64,000 bases of DNA. It comes from Pseudogymnoascus verrucosus. Its lineage: Eukaryota. Location of the stretch: assembly GCA_001662655.1 (NCBI GenBank), contig KV460212.1; one strand, written 5' to 3'. Of the stretch, positions 1 through 18,651 are shown one piece after another; position 1 is the first letter of the stretch, and the number at the start of each line of letters is the position of its first letter. The notes beneath the pieces are model-generated. The model was not told where the DNA came from. It searched no databases and was given only the letters and a program-made list of their open reading frames with translations. Position numbers and translations under genes: made by a program.

Positions 1-550
1 GGAATAGTTAGAATAGCAAACTTCTTTACTATTCTTACTATTCCTACTATTCTATTATATAGAGTTCTTATAAGGAGGTGCCTACAAATAGTCTAGTACC
101 TACTATATCTAGTACCTAGTAATAGTTAGGTACCTAGAAAGAGTTAGGTACCTACTCTATCTAGTACCTAGCAATTCTTAAGTGCCTAGGAATTTTCTAG
201 TACCTATAGAAGTAGGTACCTAAGAAAACTCTATTACCTAATGTTAACCCTACCTTAAGGGTAGTTAACTTACTAATATGTTTATAGCTACTATACTTAG
301 GGTGTTAGCAATAGTACTGCTAAAAACCCTAGCTATAACACCTATAGGGCCTTATAAAAAAAAAGTAAAAAGTAAAAAATCTAACGCCCTATAGGGCCTA
401 ACATAGGATATGTAAAATTGTAAATTTTTTAATGTTAGACATTCTAAGCCCTATAGGGCCTAAAGTCAATCCCTATAGGGCGTGTAGTAATAAATTTAAG
501 TATACACTTAACTCTAACCCTACTGCCCTAAGCCTGTAAACCCGACCTAA
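1..550. repeat. AT-rich, RIP-degraded repeat/transposon relic with repeated CCTATAGG palindromes
   Basis: Very TpA-rich and CpA/TpG-poor; many GTACCTA motifs at 90-235; (C)CCTATAGGG at ~341, 387, 449 and 471; abrupt switch to normal composition near 550. Confidence 0.75.
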
Positions 551-579
551 TTGATTTATAAGAAGTGGATTCCTGTTAA

Positions 580-2748
580 CTATCCGTTGCCATTACACGA
601 GGAGTCACAAGGGCCTCCGGCAGCACACTGAACCTTATTGTTGTCAAAGCATCGACGACGAGTCCCAATCGCTGTGTGGAAATAAGCATGCCACTTTCCA
701 ATTTGTCAGTCTATATTTATATTCACAATTAGGTCTGTGCTTACCTCATATCCATTCTCATCCGGTTGGTCGAAGTAGTCAAAGTTCTAGGCGGTTAGAC
801 TACCTGTAGGAAGTCAGCACCAATAAGTGTCGAGTAAATTACTCGGAAAAATTTCTTACCAGAGCCACAACACGGATTTACTTGTTTCATTAACGACTGC
901 TGACCCCAATCATACGTTGCCCACCCGGCGCCATAGATGTCATAATTTTGAAATGCAATTTTGTACCATCCCTTGCAACTCTGTGATGGCGCCGTTGGCG
1001 GTGGCCATGGGCGATTCGTCCTATGAACTGAGACCGCATAAAAATACTCGCCCTCGGTTCTGTTGCCACCACCCTTCCAATTCATTGGATTGTTCCCCGA
1101 TCTGGGTACGTCACAGCCATTAATAATCGAGCTAATAGCTGTTTGGCAAGAGTCTTCGCTAAATGTAGAGACCTTGTCAGACAGCGATATGGCCATTATG
1201 AATTCGTCTAAGGTGCCAGAGTAATAAGTTTTAGCGACATGCCAACCAGCCACGTTTGCAGGCTTGTTTTTGGCTACATAACTGCAGAAATCATCGATGT
1301 TGTTGTTTAGTGCTCCAGCACTTGCGTAGGCACGGCTGCCGTGGTCTGAGAAACAGAACATATTATCGACTACAAGACATACGGGACTTTCTCCGAGTAT
1401 GGCAGCACGAGCATCTCCAATGGCATCAAGGGCGTATGCAGCGATGACTTCGTGGCCGAGGCCGTTTGGGTGGAAGATCTTCCCGATACTGTCAGGTAGA
1501 GGGATGGAAGATGCTGGACAACCCGGGTCGACAGGACCACGCTTGCTCATTTCTAGTCCATACGGCTCTGCGCCGTATGTCTCATTATCGTAGTGCATGT
1601 ATCCAAAACCACCACGGCTCTCCAACGGGGCCGTGACTCCGGTGAATAGCTTGAAGAACATGACGTTTGCGTTGCCCGCGTCGTCTGGATCCTACAGGAA
1701 TGTAAGAATCTTGTATTTGATACTTCTGAAAAATCTCTACTCACCGGACTCGCTCCTGCCTCGCCTGTGTTCAGAGTTACTTTAGCGGTCTAAATAGGAG
1801 GACTAGATGTCCTTTAATGAGAGACAACTTACAGAACTGCCCACCAGTGACCTGTGCCCATGGGTCCCAATCAGCAGTCACGATCTTCATCGTCGTTGTC
1901 GCGTTAGCCGCAACCTCATCTACAGCCGCTTGTATTACGGCATTGGTTTGCACTACAAGCGAGTTGAACTGTGTACGTCTCGATGTATTCAGTGGTAGCC
2001 CTGCTGTTTTTAATACCTGCCAATTTTCTTTTGTGCAAGCGTCGGTCTGGTCGTTGAAGTATTGAGCATACAAGACTTGGACTACAATCCCATTGTTGGC
2101 CATCTTGGAACTATAATTTATCAAAGTCAATTGAAATACGTGCATATAGAAAAACGTATATATACACACTCAAGGGCGATAAGAAGGTCCTTAATGTTCT
2201 GCTTGAAGTAGCCATCAGGTCCCAGTGCGGCGTGGGCAGTAGCCACAGCAGCGTCACATCGACTATCTAACGGTGCGACACCTGCAATACATTCGTTGAT
2301 GATATTTGACTGGATTTCTCGTCAGAATTTTGACATCTTTGAGCTTAGAGGTTTATCTCACGAGACAAAGATCATTTCCACCAGCAGTCATAATGACAAC
2401 ATCTTGATCATCATCTAAAGCATTGATCTGTTCAAATATACCAGATGAGATAGCTCCCGAGCATGCAACATACGTGAAATTCTTAACAGTTGGTCCGAAG
2501 AAATGATTCATGATCACAGGATAAGTATAAGAATACCGTGAGCAGTCGTCGGAGTTGTCGCTAAGGCTGTACAGATTTCCAGATCCAATGCCTGCTGTGA
2601 AGCTGTCTCCCACTGCGGCGAACTTCTTGATCCATGAGTAATCAGTAGGGTCTGTTACTGCTCTGGCCATGTCAAAGGAGCTGGCGGCAGCCGATACAGC
2701 AGAAACCATGGCAACGCTCAACGCCATCTCTAGTAAGGGCAGCATCAT
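580..2748 (-). pseudogene. Secreted SGNH/GDSL-type hydrolase with Cys-rich C-terminal domains; in-frame TAG near the 3' end (truncated allele or pseudogene)
   Basis: Signal peptide MMLPLLEMALSVAMVSAVSA; block I FAAVGDSFTAGIG, ACSGA, block III TAGGND, IFHPNGLGH; multi-exon; spliced 3' end reads CCGSGSLTA*NFDYFDQPDENGYEWHAYFHTAIG...CNGNG* with TAG at 787-789. Confidence 0.8.
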
Positions 2749-3606
2749 GATGAGCAGCAAGATGTCGCTGGTAACAATTTTCATCAGCGCAAACAAGAAC
2801 AAGGGAATGGGTAGTGAAAAGAACTTCAGATTCTCTTTGGCTCCTCACGAGATGCGAGTCGGTGTCTAATTGGAACCCTAGATCGGATGGTTGTCTCCAT
2901 CTAGACGACTTCTTCCGGGATGTAGCTGCGAAAGAATTGTTGGGTAAATGAGAAATGTTGGAAGGATCACTGTCTTAGATCGACACATGCAACTTCGATG
3001 GATTGGGGGGTCATCGGAAATGACGCCTTGCTACCCGTACGGAGGTAAAGCCTGGATCGGGGCTTTACTTCCGTACATGCCATAGTCTTTCCTGCACCCT
3101 CCTACTCCCGCCAAGCTGCGTTATAGTTGATCTACAGTAAATTCGAGTCCTGTATTTTTAGGGACCAAGAGTCAAGGGTGAGTGCACTTCTGCCAGAACC
3201 CATCCGAGGTCCACATGGATAATCGGTCCGTCAAAAATTGAGAAAATTGTAATCGAGCAAGTAAACTGGTGCACCTTGCCGGGGCAAGGTTCAGGGGGGG
3301 TGTTGCGAAAATCGTGAGCAAGGGCAAGGGTGCGGGCTAAATCGAATGTAGTTCGCGGATTGACAAACCCCAACCGTTGTATGACAAGGGCTGTTGGCCA
3401 TGGCGGTTTCATGTAACTGCATATTGTAAAGTGACTGATGGTGTCTCATATCCTCACCACTCGTGCTTTGTCAAGCTACATATTTCTTCGACGCAACCTC
3501 ATCATCGCTCGGCAGTGCCAAATTTAAGACATTGAAAATCATATGTCTGTCGTGTTTCTCTCTCTTAATTCTCTCTGATAGAACGCCTATGAAACATTGT
3601 GGTAAT

Positions 3607-4758
3607 ATGTTGCTGGTCAAAGCCATCCACGGTTGCCTGTACACTGGACTACTCTTCTCAACTATAACGCTGGCCTGTCCTGACTATCAAGACCTTCCAT
3701 TTTTCAAAGCCGCCAATGGAAGTAGACTTGATAAAGCTGAGTTATTGAAGAGATACTACACTGTCGAACCAAGCGAAGAAGCAACCCAAGCTCCCTCTAC
3801 ATGGCCCGGCAGCACTCTTCCATACTGCTTCGAAAACGATAATACGAAGACTCTATTGAAAGACTTGGTCGAAGATGGTTGGAAGCGCTGGCAGACATCG
3901 TTAGTGGTTGATAGGCAGTCTGTCTAAATTCTAGAGGCTAATGTTCACAGAGGCGTCGACTATAACATCCACATGGGGGAGTATAATAATTGTCCTGCCC
4001 CAGTTAATGGGAATGTTACAAAGGGCATCGGCTATCTTCTCATCCAGGCGAACACTGATGGGAGGTTGCTGACCACGATTGGAACTCAGTTTTATAGCGA
4101 AGGAAACGGTGCATTTATGCTCTTTGATCCCAATCCAGATCTCGCCATGGGGGATGCCGTCGCCAACATGGCGCACGAGATAGGGTGAGCTATTACGTTC
4201 GTTATGAACAAACTTGACTGACAGAGAAATAGACACGCATGGGGGTTTTATCACGAGCAGCAACGCCCTTACTTCTGGAACAAGGTCCAATACGCCCAAG
4301 CCACGGGACCCACGAATCAAATCAATTTCGTTTGCACAAATCTAGCCGATTATGTTGACAAAGCCGGGACACCAAATGGAGACTCGAACGATGTTTGCCA
4401 CAGCGAAGCAACGGCTAAAAGTAGAGGGTTTTCTGCACTCGAATATTTGCCTATGAAAATGTCATTTACAGCTGAGCTTGAACTTGCAGACTTTGACTGG
4501 AAATCCATTATGCTTTATGGATCTACGATTGGTGGTAAGGTGGTGAACGGTGTTCGCGCCAATGTATACACCAGAGGTCATGATGGAGCGGTTAACCCTC
4601 ATAACACGTCGCCGAGTCAGCTGGACGTAGACAGGTTCAATGCAATGTATACGAAAAAGGCGAAATACAAGAACCCATGTTTAATCAATCATGGTTGTAA
4701 CCCAAAGTACGCCTCCTACATGAACTTGAAGGTCAAGTGTAAGAAAAAGCTCAGTTAG
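3607..4758 (+). CDS. Secreted astacin-like (metzincin) zinc metalloprotease, 3 exons
   Basis: Signal peptide, KR processing site (LLKR-YYT); spliced zinc motif HEIGHAWGFYHEQQRP (HExxHxxGxxHE); Met-turn KSIMLYG; introns at ~3900-3949 and ~4185-4232 join the ORF fragments in frame. Confidence 0.85.
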
Positions 4759-4963
4759 ACAGGGTACCTTATGTAGTAAGGCACGAATTCCAAGACCGTG
4801 CAAAACGTTTTCTGCATCTACAGTAAGCTTACGAGTACTGCCGATTATTACGTACTTACCACCTGCCTACTTCCTCATTGGCCTGCCAGAATCTATAGAA
4901 AAGTTGTGCCCTAGCAAATGAAGGCCGTAGGATATTTAGGTCTTCCGTAATCTAACATATATG

Positions 4964-5170
4964 GTGGATCTAACAGGGTATCACCCAACTTATTGTCTAC
5001 GGAGTTAAAGCCTATTTACCTCCGTAGAGTAGTATTTGTTGCAGGTGAGAAGCTCAGCCGGGTTGGATGTTGGATATACGGGGGCCAAAAACAACAACAC
5101 CGCAACCTTACATGTAAAGTGGATCTAACAGGGGGTCAAAACAGCGTCCTACATAAAGTGGGGCGAGGGT
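4964..5170 (+). promoter_or_regulatory. Upstream module of chitinase gene with two GTGGATCTAACAGGG elements; homologous to 7893-8115
   Basis: GTGGATCTAACAGGGTATCA at 4964, GTGGATCTAACAGGGGG at 5119; flanking blocks CCGGG-TGGAT, CAAAAACAACA, TACATGTA and AGTGGGGCGAGG are shared with the LysM upstream region. Confidence 0.65.
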
Positions 5171-5384
5171 TCATCTATCTCGTATTTACGTTGGGGTCTA
5201 CTGGATATTTAGAAAGTGATGTACTGTAAAGCTTGTAACTTTTTCTTCTGTTGACTGGGGCAAGGGCGAGGAGTTCACTTGTCTGTCGATGGTAGTCAAG
5301 CACTTCATCCTTTTCTGACAACCTTCTCTCTGCTTCTCGCTTTATTCTGTAAATATTTACTTCCAGTAGAGAAAAATTGCCGCC

Positions 5385-7404
5385 ATGAAGCTATTCTCAC
5401 TTCTCCTGGTCGGGCTGGTCGGGCTCGCTTCTATTATTTCTGCAGATTATACATGTACAAAGACGAAAGATTGTGCCAGTGGATGTTGCAGGCTAGGATC
5501 TGATGGGTTTGCTCTGCCTTAATATAGAGTTCAAGTCAATTGCTAAATTCTTTCTAGAACGGGAAGCTGTGGTCTTGGTGCGATTCTAACGCTTCTTGAG
5601 CCGTAATCATCTGTACTAATCGAAATCAAGGACCTACATTTTGCGGAGCAGGCAACTGTACATCGACGTGTGATGCAGTTTCTGAATGTGACCCTGGATG
5701 GGGTTCCAAATGGTCTGCAGCAGAAGCTTGTCCTCTTAACGTCTGCTGCAGCCAGTACGGCTTCTGTGGTGAGTATAACAAGGTTTAAATTCGAGGACTT
5801 GATGGTGATTTGTTATAGGTACCACTTCTGATTTCTGCGGATCATCTACCGTGACTTCTCCTTCCTGCGGCGGTGCCAGCTCCGATGCTCGAACGATTGG
5901 ATACTACGAAGGCTGGAATCTGGAGCGACGCTGTGATAGTACGTATATCAGCCCATAGAGCGTGTGCAGCACTGATGATATTTAGCCATGACTCCAGAAA
6001 AGATACCCTTGGGGTATTACACACATATCAATTTTGCATTTGCATTAATCGATCCAGTCACGTTCAATATCGCTCCTATGGGGTCTGATGTTGCCGCACT
6101 TTATCAAAGAGTCACAGCCCTTAAAATTCTGCAGCCTGGGCTTCAGGTCTGGATCTCGGTTGGAGGATGGGCAATGAATGATCCCGGGCCAACAGCAACT
6201 ACATTCTCAGATATTGCGGCATCGTCTACGGCACAGTCTAATTTTTTCAATTCTTTAATCAGCTTCATGGAGAAAAATGGGTTTGATGGCGTTGATCTTG
6301 ATTGGTAAGTCTTGAGGAACCTGTTCTAATTTAAACTTGGACACAAGTACTAACCGGGTTTTTAGGGAGTATCCGGTTGCACCAGACAGAGGGGGGATTG
6401 CAGCTGACCATGAAAACTATCCTGTATTCCTTCAGAACCTCCGAAATGCATTAGACCAGAGTGGGATGCCAACTCGTCCCGGAATATCAATTACGATTGT
6501 GAGTGAAAGGGGGTAGTCTTATGGTAACCCCGTTTTAAACTTATCTAGCCATCTTCGTACTGGTATATGCGCGGCTTCGACATCGTAAAGATCGATCCTG
6601 TAATTGACTTTTTCAATATCATGACTTACGACATTCACGGAACTTGGGACTCCACGGATCCGTCAATTGGAGCTATTGCGCAAGCACACACGAATCTAAC
6701 GGAGATTGAGCAGAGCCTGGAGCTCCTTTGGAGGAATAACATCGATCCCGCGAGAGGTAATCCTTTCGGCACATTCCGAACATTTATGTGAATGCTGATA
6801 ACTGTCTCAGTAAATCTTGGTCTTGGATTTTATGGTCGCAGTAAGTTTATAATTCTCATCCGCCGATTACCACACTCACTAAATTAACAGGCTTTACAAT
6901 GAGCAGCTCGTCCTGTCTTGCATCAGGTTGTCAATTTTCTGGTGGTGGCAAACCCGGGCCATGCACAAACACGTCTGGAATTCTTTCAGCTACTGAGATC
7001 AGAGAAGTAGTCGCTGGTGGCGCATCCGTCACGTTTGATCCCGTTGCAGCTGTCAAGATCATCACGTGGGACAACAACCAATGGGTCTCTTATGATGATG
7101 TCGAAACCATGAAGTTGAAGCAAGTCTCTTCAAATATGACCTTTTGATCTGGCAAAGCTAACTATGTGTTGCAGAGTCCAATACGCCAATAGCCGCTGCC
7201 TTGGAGGGTGAGAATTGGATTCCCCGACATGACTTGTGCCTCCTGCTAATGATGCTTATTAGGACTATGGTATGGGCTGTAGATTTGGATGATGGAACCA
7301 CGATAAATGCACTTGGTTCGGACCTCAGTCGTCCAAAAACTCCAACTCTTGATCCGAGTCTTTTGGACCCCAACTTTAACAATACGGATTTGGGAAGTGA
7401 CTAA
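5385..7404 (+). CDS. GH18 chitinase, subgroup C-like (killer-toxin alpha-like), with N-terminal hevein/CBM18 modules; many introns
   Basis: Signal MKLFSLLLVGLVGLASIISA; Cys-rich GCC...GSCGLGPTFCG and CPLNVCCSQYGFCGTTSDFCG; THINFAFA, ISVGGW, spliced FDGVDLDWEYP (DxDxE intact), NIMTYDIHGTWD, WVSYDD, GGTMVWAVDLDD; one intron (7120-7174) is best modelled as GC-AG. Confidence 0.93.
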
Positions 7405-7892
7405 AGCTTTGCATTATTTATTATAAACAACCTATTTTCCTATTTTCACCTGTAAAATGACAGTATGCCATAAAGCGTAATGAATGCTGCCACCATAGGC
7501 ATTGAGATTCGCTCGTGTCCCAAGCGACCTATTATTGCCTGCACTTTATCCAACAGCCTCTGATCTCAGACAAGATTGGACAACGAAGAGCATGTACTTC
7601 TCAGTATCGGGCCTTCTTTAAATCTGTTCCGGCCCATTTACCAACAACGCCAGTTTACCGTCGGGCCAGCCAATACAACAAATGTAGAATTTTACACCGG
7701 TCAGTCGAATAACTAGCGTTGTTGGTGAGTTGGCCGGAACAAATATCTCTCACCTTCTCACCCCCGCACTCATACATCGTAATCAAGCCAATAAGACGCA
7801 GAAGGGTGAACGGGCAAGAATCCCATCTGGGTTACTGCAATAATTTCAACGGCAATTCCAACAGTGTCTCCACAGCCCTATCTGCATACGTA

Positions 7893-8115
7893 GTGGATCT
7901 AAGAGGGTATCAAGCTCATCGTCTAGGGTATGGAGCAGGCTAGAAGTCTAACCGGGCTGGATATGCAAGGGACAAAAACAACAGCCCCACAACCGTACAT
8001 GTATAGTGGATCTGACAGGGTATCAAGCTCATATTCGTAGTCTGGGCCTTGCTGCGGGTAAGATGCTTAGCCGGAGGCGTATATGCAGGGGTTAAAAACA
8101 GGCAGTGGGGCGAGG
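7893..8115 (+). promoter_or_regulatory. Upstream module of LysM gene: two tandem ~113-bp units starting GTGGATCT(AAG/GAC)AGGGTATCAAGCTCAT
   Basis: Units start at 7893 and 8006, each ending ...ATATGCA(A/G)GGG...AAAAACA; collinear similarity to 4964-5170. Confidence 0.65.
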
Positions 8116-8455
8116 ATGTATTGCACGTTTGTAACCTCCACGACAGTTCTCGGTTAGTCTGCAAAGTTCAGTTGGGGATTATAATGGGAACGTGGTGTAG
8201 TCCTAAGATATTGGGGGTTGAAGGCATTCGCTTCCAGGGGATTGCTTGTGCACCACTGCTGCTCGTACTTGAGTATTGCGTAGGCTCTTCCCCTTGTCTT
8301 GATTCCGGGCTCCTAGCTCTGCTGCTGGTCGTTCGCCCAGATCTCGTCGAGGTCTTGTGGGGAGATTCCACTCATCCTCTAATTCTGTCAGGTCGTTGCT
8401 GGAACTGCTCGTCGTAAATATCATTTTCAATCCTGATTCGTCATAGAACGTTGCA

Positions 8456-11400
8456 ATGGCTGTACTGCGTCTGCTGTTGCTTTCGACTATTCTAGCGGCT
8501 TGGAATGTGCAAGGAGGCATCATCGACCTGAAAGCTGCACAGGTCGTCCGAAGAGCAACGACAGCTCATACATCATACCGCACAACTGCAGGCTTGCCAA
8601 CGCAGACAGGAATTGCCGCAAACTGCAACAAGTTCTACGATATAGTTACGGGCGATAATTGCGAAACTGTAGAAGCTGCGTTTCAAATAACGAAAGGACA
8701 GTTTCTGGCATGGAATGTAGGTTCTGAATGGGGGATCTTATGTTTCTAGTAACTGAACTGACAGCCCTACAGCCTGCCGTTTCCGATGACTGCGTCACCA
8801 ATTTTTGGGTTGGAGATTCATACTGCGTTGGCACGGCTGCTGGTGGCGTTAGCAGTACTAAGAGCAGTACTAAGAGCGTTGCTCCTCACACGACTGTTCA
8901 CTCGACAGCAGATCTACCTACACAGTCCGGATCCATCTGCAATTGCAATAAATGGTATGATGTGGTAGCTGGCGATACCTGCGCGACAATTGAGAGCACA
9001 TTTGGGATCACACTTGCTCAGTTTCTCAAATGGAATGTAAGCTGGCACTGTAAATCCACCCTCAACCCTGTGCTGACTTGCAAAGCCAGCTGTATCGTCC
9101 GACTGTGCGACCAACTTCTGGACTGGGGATAGCTACTGCGTAGGGACAACAATAGCAGCTTGCCCTACAAGTACCTCAAAGACGACTACAAGCCATACTT
9201 CTCCTACCATCTCTTCAACTTACTCTATACTTTCGCAAATAACGAGCTCATACGTGCCGGCTACAATTGCAACAGCCACGTCCTGGCCGCCGACTCATAC
9301 CCAGGCTGGGCAAGTAGCATACTGTGAGAATCTGAGTTTCTTCGGGTAGGCAAAGCTAACCGACTGTCACAGGCAATAACTGGGATCTGGTATCTGCAAG
9401 TGATACGTGTGATAGTATACAGGGTAGCTATTCAACCTTCATGTCGATGGATGACTTGTACAAATCCCCCGAGCTTTTTAACATATTTAAACAAAGAGCT
9501 GACATGAGTATCAAGCATATCATGGAATCCAGCCATTGGTGTTAATTGCACCGGTCTTTATGTTAACTACTATGTTTGCGTTGGTGAGATTCTGCTAATT
9601 TAAATCTAGGCAGGAAACATAGCTGAATCTTTTCAGGAATTCAATATCAGACAAGTGCTATAGATAACTCTACTGCAACCTCATACTGGTACCCATCATA
9701 CACTCCAACTACTGCTCCAACACTTAATACATCGTTTGTTGCATCACCGACGCAGACCGGCATCCCACCTAGCTGCCTTGCTTTCTATCAGGCCAGCGCA
9801 AATGATACATGTGAGACGATTGTAGAGAAAGAGGGCTATGTGACATTAGATGAACTCAATGAATACAATGTGAGTCACAACACTTTATGACACCTGTGCC
9901 CAACTAACAAGTTAGCCCGCACTTGGATCTGATTGTTCCGGGCTAATTCCAGGGGATTATTACTGTGTCATGAACGGTACACTTCCGTTGCCATCTGTGG
10001 CAACAGTGGCACCGACCGCGACGCAGACTGGCATTGTATCCACATGTGTCTCATGGTACCGAGCAGATAGCGGAGACAATTGCCAGCTAGTTGTTGAAAT
10101 ATTTGGCACATTTAGTGCAGCAGATTTCCTGACGTGGAATCCAGCTGTTCTCTCAGACTGCTCAGGTTTTACAGTTGGTGATTATTACTGTGTTGCGATT
10201 CCGTCAACGCCAACAACAAGGACCACCAGTTATAGCTCTACGCCACTGCCGTCAAATGGAGTTGGCCCCCAGCCAGAACAGCCTGGAATTCCAGCCGCCT
10301 GCGCGGATTACTGGTTCGTTGGCACGTATGTGTCACGATTTCGTTTTTAACTTTGTGCACTATAACATTCACTGAACTTGTGTACAGACTAGACACCTGC
10401 GACTCCATTGCGACAAAAAATAATATCACAGTCGCTCAGCTGGAAAGCTACAATGTAAGTGGACTTCGAGATTCAAATAATTTTGGCAGGAATACTACTA
10501 ACGCGCTCATAGCCAGCACTTGGCAGTGACTGCTCGGGCCTGACACAAGACTACTATATCTGTGTTGGAAAGCCAGACAACTCCACAACTAGTACTACAG
10601 CTTCAGGTACAACTACTGGCAGTATTCCAAACACTCAGACTTCAGCTTTCAGTAGCTCAACAACAACTCCAACTTCATCTCCTTGTCAAACCGTTTCAGG
10701 GATAGTCTCACCAACACCTTCAAACGCCCTTTGTGGAGTTAAGGGTTCCTCAATTGCCGCCTCAGGTGCTGGAACTCTTATTGGATATGTTACCGGCAGC
10801 AGCTATGTTACAAGTCTTGCTGCTTGTAGCTCACAGTGTCTAGCAACTTCGTGCTGTACAAACATCTATTTCATTCAAGGGAGAAACTGCAACTTGCACT
10901 ATGGACCCAACGCTTTTAATAACAACGTTGGAAGTACACTGTTTGATTTTTATGATGCGACTTGTTTCACCTGTGGAGCGATAGGCTGTACTACAGCACC
11001 AAGTACAACTACTGGTGCTTCTCTAACAAATACAGGAGCGCTAGGGATTGTCACACCGTCTCCTGTCCAGGTAAGGACTTAACAACTCCAAAAAGATTAT
11101 GAGACGAGGATGGCTGACTATTATGCAGCCGAGCATGGTGAGTGGTTGCGAGAGATTCTACTACGTCGAAAGTGGCGACGGATGCTACAATCTAGCAGCT
11201 GAGGCGGGCATACCTCTTAGTAAGTTCAAATATGTTTCCATCTCAGTGCATACTAACTGGCATGCGTTCTATAGATAGCTTCTACTCTTACAATGTAAGT
11301 AAACCATCTACAACATGCTCCTCTCTGTACTAACAATTTGAAGCCTGCCGTAAAAACAGACTGTACCGGACTTCAAGCCCATGTTTATGTTTGTATTGGT

Positions 11401-11460
11401 CTTAATGGGCCAGCGACGACCATTACGACTGGCACGCCCGTACCAGTCCCGTCGTCGTAG
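8456..11460 (+). CDS. Secreted multi-LysM (CBM50) protein, seven fungal-type Cys-containing LysM domains plus a PAN/apple-like Cys domain
   Basis: Signal MAVLRLLLLSTILAAWNVQG; seven C..Y/W.V..GD.C..I.........F..(W/Y)NPA...C.......Y.C(V/I) units with T/S-rich linkers; most are split by an intron at N|P; stop TAG 11458-11460. Confidence 0.9.
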
Positions 11461-11680
11461 ATATATATACCTTCATGACCTTTGAGATTGATAGCATCCC
11501 AATGGTATGTGGTATACAATCGAGGAATTATAAGACTGTAGCGAGATGGTTTACATGAGGACTTCCAATCGTCATTAATATAGACCCTCTATGTCTGCAA
11601 TAAACTTGTAATTCTAGGTGTATACAAAACAAACTATTTGTCCTTTCATAATGCAAAGCTAGTGCACATCTAGGTGACAA

Positions 11681-12718
11681 TCATACATTGGCCGAAGACC
11701 CAAAACACGCCCTTGCTGTTGTAATATCCGGAAACGCTATTAGCGTGAAATTTGATCCCTCATCAACGCTCAAATTCCTCAAATTCGACGAAGGGAGGTA
11801 ATCTGATCCCTCATTACCGCTCAAATGCGTCGCATACGTCTGGGGGACCAGTACCTCAAAAACATCCATTTTACCCAGCTGCTTTAAAGGTCCTAGCCAC
11901 ACTTCCTTCAAATCAGCTGGTGCTGGATTGGGGCATTCATGGGCTATGACCGCAATCTCGAGGTGCCGGAGATTGGGCATACGTGCAAGCATAGCCCACA
12001 TGTCGTGATAAAGCTGCCTGTCTTTGGCCGGGATGACCGAGCAGCCTAGATTGAGAAAGTACCATTTCATCTCGATGGCACTAATAAGTGCGAAGCGTTG
12101 TGGGAGCACTAGTGACGAAAAGTCACAAAGAAGCTGTCGAGTGTCGAAGTCGAAGGTCGTGGTGCTGTAGAGGATGTCGATTGCTTCTGAATACCTTGCG
12201 TTGAGTTAGCAGCCTCCCCGAGAATGTGGAACCAGAGCAGCTCAAATATCAGTTATTTACATTTGTCGACATGTCAGCAAAATCGCAAAATCGAGCTTCA
12301 GTTTGCCCATCATTCCGTTTGGGGGTCCTGGATCCCCACCAAGATTTGCCCATCTACATCCATCCCGCCAGATCCTCCAGGAGTGATCATACCCCTTGGT
12401 TTGGTCCCACGTGCAAATGCAGTGCCACCATCGCCACTCTAAATGCTCCTTCTTCTTGTCTGTACGGTACTCGCGCGGTCCAAATTCGAAGGCCACGTGG
12501 ACTTTGCGATGGCCGAGGACATCGTCGTAGATGCGAAGGCGAAGTTCGATCGGCAGCCTCGACAAGAGCCCCGATGCAAGTTGACTAGGGTCATATAGAG
12601 TCAAAGCTCGCTCACGAATTTTGGGAAGACGTGGCTGAAGGTCTTTGTCCTGATATTCTGGCCGCTTCGGACGAGAAATCTTACGATTCTGTGACTCAGT
12701 TAGAACAATTGCGCTCAT
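11681..12718 (-). CDS. Intracellular F-box-like/DUF7730-type fungal protein, 2 exons
   Basis: LLSRLPIELRLRIYDDVLG and spliced AILLTCRQMYSEAIDILYSTTTFDF motifs; intron ~12195-12261 joins ORFs 12257-12718 and 11681-12109. Confidence 0.75.
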
Positions 12719-13015
12719 TAGTTAGATGGGCACTGAGTAAAACCTTGCGACTGAAGAGCTTCTTAAAGTCCATTATCATGTGCCTTGTGAGCTCCTCAGT
12801 GTACAGGTCGATCGATTGTGTCGGTCTGTCTGCTATAAAACTGCGGTCCAGGAGGGTTATTAGGGTAACCCCTGATTAGGGGTTGGTGCACGGACGATTT
12901 CCGCGTATTCTGTCGGAATCCGACGCGTCCTACGACACACTCATTTGAAGCTTGGACTCTTTTCGCGTATTCTGTTAGAATACGAAGCAGCATAAAGGTC
13001 TTGAGGAGGGCTGGC

Positions 13016-16442: not shown

Positions 16443-18651
16443 TGTTACGGATGTGAGACTAGGCCCGTAGCAGGCCGCTACGCCACGTCTAGGAGCTACT
16501 ATCACATGTTTGAGGCTGTTTGAGAGCTTTAGCTCAGGCCCTCACTCTAGCCTACTTACACCACGTAGGCTCCGTAGATAGTTTAGTTAGTCAATTGATT
16601 GTATTACTGCATACTATGCTATATACTCTAGTTTTCGATGTCCCTATTTTCGCCTGCATTTTACCACCTATGGGATACACAGCCGTTTTCGCTATGAATC
16701 TCTAGCTACAGCTAATATCCTCTAACGTATTTCACATACGAGTGGCCTACACAAGCGAGTGGCCTACCAAAACACTAAAATTTGACTATTACTGCCTACT
16801 ACTACACCACCACCCTACATAATGACCCTTATTCAATCGTAATTAAATCCTCGTGCCTCTCGCACGTACAGGAGTTATGGCCTATAATACTACATAAGCC
16901 GCAGCGCTTGTGTTGGCCCTTAGAGCCTACCTACCAACTACTCTTACTTGCTACCTCTATACAGACTTAAGCTTTAACCTTAGCACTTTAAACAATATCC
17001 TCTCCCTCTTATATAGAGAGACTACCCCCTTGCATTATACACCTCTTACACTTCCTTTCCCTCCTATTTTTCTACTCATTTGCTGCTTATAGAGCCTTAA
17101 CTTCTACCTTAAGTAGAATAGTAGAATGTATTATAACTTACACCCCTTTAACAAAGTAGCTAATAGCATTATTAATTAAGGTAGGAGAGCTATTCTAATG
17201 TTATACAACATAGTTCTTAATATGCTCTATTTAAAAATTAAGCTCCTTTATAGTTTAAGAAGGTCTTTAAAGTCTAATTATTACTCTTAACTATTAGAGG
17301 AGTTAGAGTTCTTAAGTATAGATTAAGCTAAGAAAGAATATTATATAGCTTATATAAAACTACTCTTATAGCTTAGAATCTACTCTTAATGTTCTACTCT
17401 ATAAATGTAGCTTTAAATGCTTCCTTAAATATAAAGAGAAACCTAAGCTTTATAATATAGTTTAGCCTATTCTATATAAAGGTTTTAATCTAACATCTAT
17501 ATAAAAGCTTTAGTAGAGTAAAGCAGCTTATATTAAGTAGCTAAAGAATGTATAATAAGTATAATAGTATATAAAGGGTAATTATCTTCTATTTTATATA
17601 ATAGTACTAAAATTAAGCTAAGAGGTAGCTCTTATGTCTATTAAGAATAAGAAGATAATAGGTTCTAATTATATAAGTGCTTATATGTTAATTAAAGTGT
17701 TAAATCTACTTATACCTAATTAAATTTAAAGTCTACCTATTCTTACTTAATATAATTACTTAATTGTCTTAAGTCCTTATACTAAATAAAGAGGTAATTC
17801 TATACTTTAAAAATAATAAATAGTAGGAGTGCCTATCTATATAAATTAACACCTTAGATAATTAACACCTATTCCCTATTCTCTAGCTATATAGTCTTTA
17901 GATAGCTCTTTACTCTTAAGCTTATAACTACCTTTATAGTAGTAATAACTCCTATTATAAAACCTACTTTATTAAAGTTATAGATATTCTACTTTAAGAT
18001 GCTATATTTTATAACTATGTTTTATATAAGAGAGAACTACTATTTAATTATCTTTAGATCTTTACATTTTACTCTTTTATACTTATACTTTAACTAAACA
18101 TTACTTTAATTTCTATATAACACTTTATAAAGTTAGTAGTCTAGTTAATCCTAATAGGGCTCTTACCTTATTTAGAGAGTAGAAGGTTAGCTATTTCTAT
18201 ATACCTTATAGCTAGAGTAGAAATCTACATAAATCTAGGTTAAGGATATACTAAACGAGAGCTAACTCTTTATATAGAGTTAACTTCTATAAGTTAGGAA
18301 TAGAGTTACATTAAGAAGTCATTCCTTAAATTTGTTAACATAGTGTTGTTTAAGGGATATTATATAATGCTATAGATACTTAAACACTTTAGAACTAGCC
18401 TTGTTTAATTATACTAATTACTAATAGTATTCTACCCTCCTAATTAGAGGATTTAGCTTATGTTAGTTGTAGCATGTTGTCTGCTGTTAAGTTGACGCGT
18501 CTTAGTGTTTTAGTGGGCCACTCGCTTATGTGGGCCACTCGTATGTGAAATACGTTAACACATTCTAATAATCTGTCTGTCTAGTAACTGAAATGCATAC
18601 ACGGGGCAAGTCGGTCCGCCCTTGCCGTGGCTTGTGACTAGCGGCTTAACA
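16443..18651. mobile_element. Probable solo LTR (~375 bp) split by the Fot1 insertion
   Basis: Begins TGTTAC at 16443 and ends TTAACA at 18651 (TGTTA/TAACA inverted ends); non-coding; no matching TSD seen. Confidence 0.4.
16725..18555 (-). mobile_element. Fot1/pogo (Tc1-mariner superfamily) DNA transposon, heavily RIP-mutated
   Basis: TIRs ACGTATTTCACATACGAGTGGCC... / ...GGCCACTCGTATGTGAAATACGT with internal CGAGTGGCC duplication; TA TSD at 16723-24 and 18556-57; 1831 bp; TpA-saturated interior; relic transposase start (SSN*EGRILL) on the minus strand. Confidence 0.9.

Follow-up and report, generated by a model that had tools for sequence, protein, structure and literature searches.

Does a run of adjacent genes for putatively secreted proteins in Pseudogymnoascus verrucosus reflect a chance neighborhood or one copy of a conserved system, and on what would such a system act? 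The question is raised by a 64,000-nucleotide stretch of contig KV460212.1 (assembly GCA_001662655.1; hereafter the window), in which positions 580 to 11460 hold four adjacent intron-rich genes, g1 to g4, for an SGNH hydrolase with a lectin domain, an astacin-like protease, a GH18 chitinase and a multi-LysM protein. Exon models were made by hand and by script and were checked against homologs by tblastn; they uphold the layout described in an earlier reading of the letters alone (the sequence-only reading), including the divergent arrangement of the SGNH and protease genes, whose start codons lie 804 bp apart. Beyond g4 we find a further gene, g5, for a DUF7730 protein. To our knowledge, conserved clusters of genes for secreted proteins, unlike those for metabolite pathways, are rare in fungi. 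The chances seem to us about even that the locus is one copy of an old, conserved cluster of filamentous ascomycetes, a secreted toolkit that is probably co-regulated and would act on a composite of chitin, protein and lipid.

Linkage of the genes across filamentous ascomycetes

Linkage was assessed in metagenome contigs with the SGNH-lectin alignment as anchor, which gave 66 loci, each with flanks of up to 10 kb in both directions. The loci were searched with the four window models and their homologs, the protease additionally by a hidden Markov model and an extra query, and were collapsed into 42 groups at ≥95% nucleotide identity. The informative set consists of the 13 groups that combine a strong SGNH match (>200 bits) with a 5′ flank of 8 kb or more. 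All 13 contain GH18, 12 contain LysM and 12 the astacin-like gene, and 11 have all four genes together. Four more strong-match groups with 3–5 kb of flank (L021, L023, L040 and L050) each show at least one partner gene. As a control, the four groups whose SGNH/lectin matches are only weak and whose flanks measure 7 kb or more (L046, L048, L052 and L053) have no GH18 gene, no astacin gene and a single weak LysM match. As a second control, a partner gene was seen on the 3′ side of SGNH in one of nine strong-match groups with at least 4.6 kb there, and the 3′ flanks have no coding similarity between groups except for the close pair L038/L040. In L055 and L057 the astacin copy is very divergent, and its coding frame breaks off immediately behind HEIG, the place of the intron in the window gene.

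Named genomes give the same picture, with linkage that spans Leotiomycete, Eurotiomycete and Sordariomycete genomes. SGNH and chitinase are 1–3 locus tags or accessions apart in nine of the eleven genomes having both: P. destructans (tags 00834 and 00837), Pseudogymnoascus V495, V502, VE03, V498 and VE04 (within 1–3 genes by locus tag), Xylogone (KAH8812729 and KAH8812727), Bombardia bombarda (KAK0630522 and KAK0630523) and Phialemonium thermophilum (tags 4030 and 4029). The astacin gene sits between the two in VE03 (01471/01472/01473) and in P. destructans (00834/00836/00837). In Penicillium herquei the multi-LysM protein P0265 is separated from the SGNH-lectin gene by three accession steps (KAJ5621954, KAJ5621957), and in P. 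longicatenatum a multi-LysM gene occurs near SGNH twice, at 3 and 4 steps. The sequence-only reading had proposed that the four genes form one unit, to be checked by whether homologs of the SGNH and protease genes are linked to GH18 and LysM elsewhere, and the metagenome lineages and named genomes together answer that they are.

While gene content is kept, order and orientation are shuffled. Written with SGNH on the plus strand and with AST for the astacin-like gene, the order LysM(−) GH18(−) AST(−) / SGNH(+) is found in the window and L015, and in VE03 for the three genes seen there. The order LysM(−) AST(−) GH18(−) / SGNH(+) is found in L002, L030, L055 and L057, LysM(−) AST(+) GH18(−) / SGNH(+) in L009, L026 and L041, and LysM(−) GH18(+) AST(−) / SGNH(+) in L036, L038 and L044. 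The upstream neighbor of SGNH, be it AST or GH18, is divergent in all 18 groups that show one, and also in the window. In the SGNH-lectin tree the arrangement types mostly follow clades, between-clade paths exceed 1.5 changes per site, and the SGNH proteins of the groups are 35–64% identical to the nearest named reference. Linkage therefore outlasts local synteny. This pattern bears directly on the view that only the chitinase–LysM pair is functional, with the esterase, protease and DUF7730 genes as bystanders carried along by inherited synteny. Chitinase–LysM pairs are indeed the only part of the set that is in print, as far as the accessible parts of the papers go (PMC7176902, PMC4392113, PMC3445971, PMC5118889; here and below, what we take from cited work is limited to such parts). 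Since plain synteny does not predict content that is kept at this level of protein identity while order, orientation and outer flanks differ, we consider the bystander view very unlikely.

The right flank, which the sequence-only reading took for a degenerate element, is instead occupied by g5, an intact two-exon gene lying tail-to-tail with the LysM gene. Its product lacks a signal peptide; an LPxEL..I motif is found in the N-terminal part. By tblastx, tblastn and Pfam, a DUF7730 gene in the same position and orientation beyond LysM is present in five of six checkable lineages (the window, L005, L009, L015 and L041), and the open reading frame (ORF) of these genes breaks at the same profile position, about 89/90, which is the same intron place. 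In L026 no DUF7730 gene was seen in the 1.5 kb present beyond LysM, and the remaining metagenome loci do not extend past the LysM gene. Judged by these sequence comparisons, the DUF7730 gene is a conserved fifth member of the cluster, and we widen the unit to five genes. A literature search found no paper on the function of a DUF7730/2EXR protein.

Some loci have peculiarities of their own. P. destructans has an extra annotated gene, VC83_00835, between SGNH and astacin, which is absent in VE03. In L033, a weak match to a Tc5-transposase helix-turn-helix (12512–12757, E 5e-4) lies between SGNH and a displaced GH18 gene, and the locus may have been rearranged by a transposon. In L005, the matches to GH18 and to LysM follow each other directly or overlap at 5310–7701, on one strand and with GH18 first, and may represent a fusion or two very close genes.

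Table 1. Genes and other features of the locus, in window coordinates
Feature	Position	Strand	Basis
g1, putatively secreted SGNH (SEST-like lipase/esterase) protein with Fungal_lectin_2 and a C-terminal Cys/Trp-rich domain	580–2784	−	Pfam and homolog alignment
g1 exons (7)	2784–2362, 2309–2170, 2110–1833, 1764–1745, 1691–860, 803–745, 693–580	−	Gene model
In-frame TAG, g1 codon 570 of 621	787–789	−	Trp in homologs
g2, putatively secreted astacin-like zinc metalloprotease, 3 exons	3589–4758 (3589–3899, 3951–4184, 4233–4758)	+	Motifs, Pfam, Foldseek
g3, putatively secreted CBM18 + GH18 chitinase, 497 aa, ~53 kDa, 11 exons, GC-AG intron 7120–7174	5385–7404	+	Pfam, motif, tblastn
g4, putatively secreted protein with 7 fungal-type LysM and a PAN-like domain, 803 aa, 12 exons	8456–11460	+	Repeats, Pfam LysM on exon pieces
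g5, intact DUF7730/2EXR gene, 323 aa, exons 12718–12261 and 12194–11681	11681–12718	−	Pfam E 1.9e-17 and 1.2e-7
Divergent g1/g2 intergenic region	2785–3588		Gene models; palindromic TACGGAGGTAAAGCC pair at 3038–3075
Short dispersed repeat, two copies, upstream of g3; partners at 7874–8026 upstream of g4	4945–5139	+	Core GTGGATCTAACAGGGTATCA
AT-rich relic of repeat-induced point mutation (RIP) at the 3′ end of g1	1–540		GC 0.33, TpA/ApT 2.45, (CpA+TpG)/(ApC+GpT) 0.31, 52-nt tandem units

Gene products and their domains

The products of g1 to g4 all have a hydrophobic N-terminus, in line with the signal peptides that the sequence-only reading had assigned to them; g2 is the weakest case, and the call comes from a Kyte-Doolittle window only. 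That reading had likewise named the protease and the seven LysM repeats correctly, and its SGNH call for g1 stands for the catalytic domain, having missed the lectin domain, the C-terminal domain and an in-frame stop codon. No further copy of the g1–g4 genes was found beyond 12 kb within the window.

The SGNH/GDSL blocks of g1 read GDSF, GGND and FHPNGLGH, and GDSF, GGND and FHPN..GH are invariant across 18 sequences, so that blocks I, III and V of the family are present together with its fold. Pfam Fungal_lectin_2 (PF18647, the alpha-galactosyl-binding Lyophyllum lectin family) matches g1 and its homologs at E of about 2e-33 to 1e-35, and the C-terminal Cys/Trp-rich domain of SGNH-lectin proteins is PF28342 in the database's precomputed Pfam column. 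The complete three-domain architecture recurs in 18 of 22 homologs from a word-index search with the SGNH-lectin exon. A sequence search of the PDB with the lectin exon gave no match at E 0.01, and an ESM Atlas search with the C-terminal domain gave no usable match. The Xylogone ortholog P0006 was folded with 17 relatives (predicted local distance difference test, pLDDT, 61.5; SGNH and lectin parts mostly about 70–88, with weak stretches), and the model is nearest to the Streptomyces rimosus lipase 5mal (E 1.8e-10), the S. albidoflavus phospholipase A1 (PLA1) 4hyq and the S. scabies esterase 1esc, with E up to 6e-7. These fold matches place the SGNH domain in the SEST-like lipase/esterase group. 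The g1 family has the fold and the GDS, GGND and H-P blocks in common with the Streptomyces enzymes, and differs from them in being fungal, about 20% identical and fused to a PF28342 domain and a lectin of the Lyophyllum decastes lectin (LDL) type. The SGNH domain has no Asp three residues before the catalytic His, and neither has the S. scabies esterase, for whose catalytic dyad this missing Asp is a characteristic trait.

In the particular case of the window, g1 is interrupted by the TAG listed in Table 1. Reading through it gives an end-to-end alignment with P0006 (70.6% over 612 columns), and the gene is therefore otherwise intact. The four homologs compared have Trp at this site, within CCGSGSLTGWTFDYFD in Xylogone and P. 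destructans and within ITNWHFEYFD in Bombardia and Phialemonium; the window has CCGSGSLTA-stop-NFDYFD instead. The plus-strand change is CCA to CTA, a CpA to TpA transition of the RIP type located 250 bp from the RIP relic. No frame-keeping alternative splice around the codon was found by hand, and the codon is outside the coverage shown for the two public runs described below. As predicted from the gene model, the stop would remove the last 52 residues of the product.

The protease g2 carries the motifs HEIGHAWGFYHE and SIMLY. The database protein P0001, which is identical to g2 over the search exon and collinear with the whole gene, begins at ATG 3607, an alternative start, and scores 29.1 bits against Pfam Astacin (cut-off 22.5). 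In its structural model (pLDDT 60.6) the first 18 Foldseek ranks in the PDB are all of the astacin family, with zebrafish and medaka hatching enzymes, Limulus and crayfish astacins, BMP1, TLL1, meprins and myroilysin among the matches. Across 11 family members the zinc-binding His residues and catalytic Glu of HExxHxxGxxH, the SxMxY sequence and a dibasic KR/RR ahead of W-P..[IL].Y are invariant. The zinc site, the Met-turn and the Pfam score thus agree with an astacin (MEROPS M12A), and the RxDRD part is not kept. In common with hatching enzymes, astacin, BMP1/tolloid and meprins, the family has HExxHxxGxxHE, SxMxY, W-P-x-x-x-[IL]-x-Y near the mature N-terminus and a propeptide; in contrast to the solved members it is 13–17% identical and has QxP in place of RxDRD. 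A word-index search with the astacin-like exon gave five proteins among 153 candidates, namely the window's own, two from Pseudogymnoascus (57–60%) and two weak matches. By sequence, g2 appears to belong to a small fungal family that is very divergent from known astacins, and the dibasic site would fit a zymogen processed by Kex2. Several copies have a Cys near the C-terminus.

For the chitinase g3, the GH18 catalytic motif DxxDxDxE is present as DGVDLDWE, and Pfam GH18 matches both the exon pieces and the ortholog P0028 (E 6e-70), exons 1–3 at the N-terminal end being less certain. The solved structures closest to its GH18 domain are those of insect group II chitinases and human chitotriosidase, and its CBM18 is of the hevein type. 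The protein contains no LysM and no long C-terminal part, and the approximately 40 residues after the last GH18 motif (TMVWAVDLDD) contain no Cys. A search with the chitinase exon gave 342 proteins, and PF01476 LysM occurs in none of the best 120 of these 342. These features are not those of a classical large subgroup-C or C-II killer-toxin chitinase, and they lend no support to the 'killer-toxin-like subgroup-C' label of the sequence-only reading. The predicted architecture instead fits subgroup C-I (CBM18, no LysM) as drawn in the accessible part of 10.1101/2024.10.25.620242. In a GH18 tree made only of relatives found in this analysis, a single clade of cluster chitinases was not supported: they are spread over the short CBM18-GH18 subfamily, with the window, Xylogone and Pseudogymnoascus grouped together, as are Bombardia, L002 and L030, then L033, L036, L038 and L044, and finally L009 and L041. 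The cluster is therefore old and co-inherited within clades, and not every such chitinase need be clustered.

The chitinase is also the point at which a zymocin-like killer-toxin cluster has to be considered, in which it would be a carrier delivering a linked toxic cargo into competitors. As described in the accessible part of Heneghan et al. (10.1101/2024.10.25.620242), such clusters combine a C-II chitinase, itself bearing LysM and a C-terminal Cys, with a small gamma-toxin; an Imm gene is often present as well, a LysM-only gene in some cases, and no such cluster is reported there from Leotiomycetes. Some relatives of g3 are auto-named 'Killer toxin subunits alpha/beta', several astacin copies have the C-terminal Cys mentioned above, and a LysM-only gene such as g4 would be at home in such a cluster. 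The chitinase itself does not fit, however, since g3 has none of the LysM, the C-terminal extension or the C-terminal Cys of the beta-gamma disulfide, and its 120 best-matching relatives are free of LysM as well. Inspected by eye, the gaps at 4759–5384, 7405–8455 and 11461–11680 showed no prominent start-codon ORF with a hydrophobic N-terminus and no gamma-toxin or Imm candidate, although such toxins are so diverse that one could be overlooked. Similarly, a tblastx search for a conserved small gene in 45 cluster gaps gave matches only between close relatives and none to the gaps of the window. This explanation is in our view highly improbable.

Each of the seven LysM repeats of g4 has a [WY]NP..C core. 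A Cys-rich PAN-like domain, whose relatives score PAN_1, PAN_3 or PAN_4, lies between LysM6 and LysM7 (exon 10513–11070). The hydrophobic N-terminus, the seven Cys-containing repeats, the lack of a catalytic domain and the position next to g3 are those of a LysM-only protein of the TAL6 type, and P0265 of Penicillium herquei is a similar multi-LysM protein with the same repeat order. No PAN-like domain was found in the LysM genes of the other cluster loci. The domain represents a small family of 88 representatives, often in tandem arrays, one of which is a 916-aa Pseudogymnoascus protein made up of a long series of near-identical copies; it is sometimes fused to LysM, CFEM, CBM20 or an SGNH esterase (Oculimacula P0188).

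Transcription, flanks and promoter sequences

The introns of the window are short (about 46–68 nt) with GT..AG ends, apart from one GC-AG intron in g3. Two public runs, X1 and X2, were aligned to window positions 500–11600. The contigs of X1 are 95–100% alike to the window and skip exactly five predicted introns, at 3900–3950 in g2 and at 6305–6365, 6499–6548, 7120–7174 (GC..AG) and 7208–7262 in g3, for which reason we take X1 to be RNA-derived. Its pieces cover 880–1387 in g1, 3478–4144 in g2, about 6065–7428 in g3, and 9097–9280 and the bin 10888–11258 in g4, and none falls in a wholly intergenic bin of the aligned region. All four genes are thus transcribed in one sample, a result that speaks of presence only, at a low depth of 2–3.4. 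The contigs of X2 are unspliced and 95–99% alike, and represent DNA of a relative.

On the left, the base composition of the first 540 nt (Table 1) agrees with the RIP relic named in the sequence-only reading, and the genes g1–g4 themselves have no RIP signatures. A second AT-rich block at 16800–18500 has a GC content of 0.23–0.28, TpA/ApT of 1.74 and (CpA+TpG)/(ApC+GpT) of 0.43. Elsewhere in Pseudogymnoascus a carrier gene rather than a repeat flanks the cluster. Three models of 947–973 aa from this genus (P0010, P0276 and P0279) group with the SGNH-lectin protein, and P0010 additionally contains the mitochondrial-carrier domain PF00153; a PMP47B-like carrier gene adjoins SGNH in sister strains, and the long models are probably merged annotations.

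The spaces between the genes contain two kinds of short repeated sequence. Palindromic TACGGAGGTAAAGCC pairs occur in the g1/g2 promoter (Table 1) and upstream of g3 at 4996–5028, and the four best of eight near-matches in the window sit at these pairs, with 1.15 expected. A small mobile element or a site of local control may account for them. The GTGGATCTAACAGGGTATCA repeat is present in two copies per site, in the same orientation, at sites that bracket the chitinase gene, with three matches in 64 kb against 0 expected. Because it is absent from related loci, the repeat is probably local and not a conserved control element.

Possible roles and relation to known systems

The linkage of five genes despite changes of order suggests a shared job on chitin-rich walls. 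In the toolkit reading given above, the CBM18-GH18 chitinase would cut chitin, while the astacin-like protease, probably freed from its propeptide at the Kex2-type KR site, would strip the protein matrix. The SEST-like esterase, of a lipase or phospholipase type and tethered to a glycan by its lectin, would hydrolyze ester or lipid components. The multi-LysM protein would bind chitin and, by analogy with TAL6 and LYSM2, either shield the producer's wall or control the action of the chitinase. The DUF7730 protein, predicted to remain inside the cell, may for that reason act as a regulator. The likely substrate would be a chitin-protein-lipid composite such as the walls of foreign or dead fungi, or chitinous material of another kind. 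We infer the co-regulation, the division of labor and the target from the gene set and its arrangement. The antagonism put forward in the sequence-only reading, with the esterase and the protease as possible effectors or maturases, is a hypothesis.

Several observations weigh against this reading. First, the linkage counts are not independent events, as the lineages are related, and the test was anchored in one direction, on the SGNH-lectin gene only. The astacin gene is missing from L005, and in L033 the sequence at hand shows no LysM and has GH18 on the 3′ side of SGNH. The SGNH and chitinase matches listed for Aspergillus ellipticus and for Pseudogymnoascus VF21 are not neighbors. Second, cluster-linked chitinases are interspersed with other short CBM18-GH18 chitinases of unseen context, and many species with such a chitinase gave no SGNH-lectin match in the word-index searches. 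Third, the promoters give no shared signal: 6–8-mers in 18 divergent SGNH intergenic regions did not exceed shuffled maxima (words of the CCACCCC and CAGGGGT type occur in 11–12 of the 18, and shuffled sequences reach up to 12), and the GTGGATCTAACAGGGTATCA repeat and TACGGAGGTAAAGCC palindromes were rejected as conserved control elements, being absent from 17 related loci. Fourth, the RNA support is that of a single low-depth run, and is silent on regulation. Finally, the premature stop in g1 may mean that the copy in this genome is partly disabled, or decaying at its edge.

A different use of the same enzymes would be on the producer's own wall, in autolysis, hyphal-network remodeling, germination control or the recycling of old hyphae, with the LysM protein as a brake and no attack on others. 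The Trichoderma tac6-tal6 pair offers a precedent: TAL6 inhibits the fungus's own germination, tal6 and tac6 are expressed during hyphal network formation (PMC4392113), and a tac6 deletion strain grows faster (PMC5118889), as stated in the accessible parts of these papers. The named carriers are also mostly saprotrophs. An alpha-galactosyl-type lectin and a lipase/PLA1-like domain would nevertheless have no obvious target in the own wall, and we regard own-wall use as rather unlikely.

Lipase, protease and chitinase form the classic triad of enzymes that degrade cuticles and eggshells, and the gene set matches it. The target could accordingly be an invertebrate barrier, the nematode eggshell or arthropod cuticle being chitin-protein-lipid layers, and the lectin would recognize animal glycans. 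Egg-envelope hatching enzymes are the best structural matches of the astacin-like protease, and fungal chimerolectins with enzyme domains act against nematodes, with a glycan preference of LDL in common with Shiga toxins (PMC13324453, accessible part). On the other hand, the known anti-nematode lectins are cytoplasmic while the g1 protein has a predicted signal peptide, and none of the carriers seen is a known nematode or insect specialist, which makes an invertebrate target distinctly unlikely in our estimate.

Close to the toolkit reading in its parts, and unlikely though less so than an invertebrate target, is an ancient 'breach-and-shield' contact weapon of Pezizomycotina against other fungi, with an enzyme payload instead of a ribonuclease toxin. 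Chitinase and astacin would first open the target wall, and the lectin-guided phospholipase-like esterase would then attack the exposed membrane. The LysM protein would shield the producer, and the intracellular, F-box-like DUF7730 protein would be dedicated to the cassette, either in its regulation or in immunity. The genes would be held together by selection for joint control through bidirectional promoters, and the cassette would be a functional counterpart of zymocin-like clusters built on the LysM-less branch of chitinases.

The toolkit reading, to which we return as the preferred one, could explain how saprotrophic molds breach chitin-protein-lipid barriers and yet protect their own walls. 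The cluster provides a first genomic context for three families without assigned function, namely the fungal astacin-like proteases, the SGNH-LDL chimerolectins and the DUF7730 proteins, and as a defined five-gene unit it is amenable to genetic tests in tractable Penicillium species. A full-text search found no paper describing this gene composition, subscription papers and preprint supplements (Tables S1–S4, which might list neighboring ORFs) being outside its reach. The composition as a whole appears undescribed, whereas the pairing of chitinase and LysM genes is already known.

Three known systems invite comparison. The zymocin-like clusters, according to the accessible part of 10.1101/2024.10.25.620242, are likewise small nuclear clusters with introns that are non-syntenic between species and combine a secreted GH18 chitinase with, often, a LysM-only gene. 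The C-II LysM chitinase, C-terminal Cys, gamma-toxin ribonuclease and Imm gene are theirs and none of them was seen here, where the partners are hydrolases. LDL and the chimerolectins MOA and CCTX2 resemble the g1 protein in uniting an LDL-family lectin and an enzyme in one chain (PMC13324453, accessible part). In contrast to these, the g1 protein would be secreted rather than cytoplasmic, its enzyme part is an SGNH esterase, and its lectin is known by domain match only.

The closest resemblance is to the chitinase–LysM pairs of Trichoderma and Clonostachys, in which a secreted CBM18 GH18 chitinase is likewise encoded beside a LysM-only gene. In the accessible parts of the reports, TAL6 of the tac6-tal6 pair has seven LysM, as does g4, and its gene and tac6 are regulated together on chitin and on fungal walls (PMC4392113); Clonostachys chiC1 and lysm2 are adjacent and co-induced on chitin (PMC7176902), and further pairs exist in T. 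rubrum and Rhynchosporium (PMC3445971, PMC5118889). Unlike in the Trichoderma and Clonostachys pairs, the chitinase described here is short, at about 500 aa, and a PAN-like domain is added in g4. Most distinctively, those are two-gene pairs, whereas here SGNH-lectin, astacin-like and DUF7730 genes are linked as consistently as LysM, so that the cluster adds three consistent partners to the pair: a lipase-like esterase that carries a lectin, an astacin of divergent sequence and a member of the DUF7730 family.

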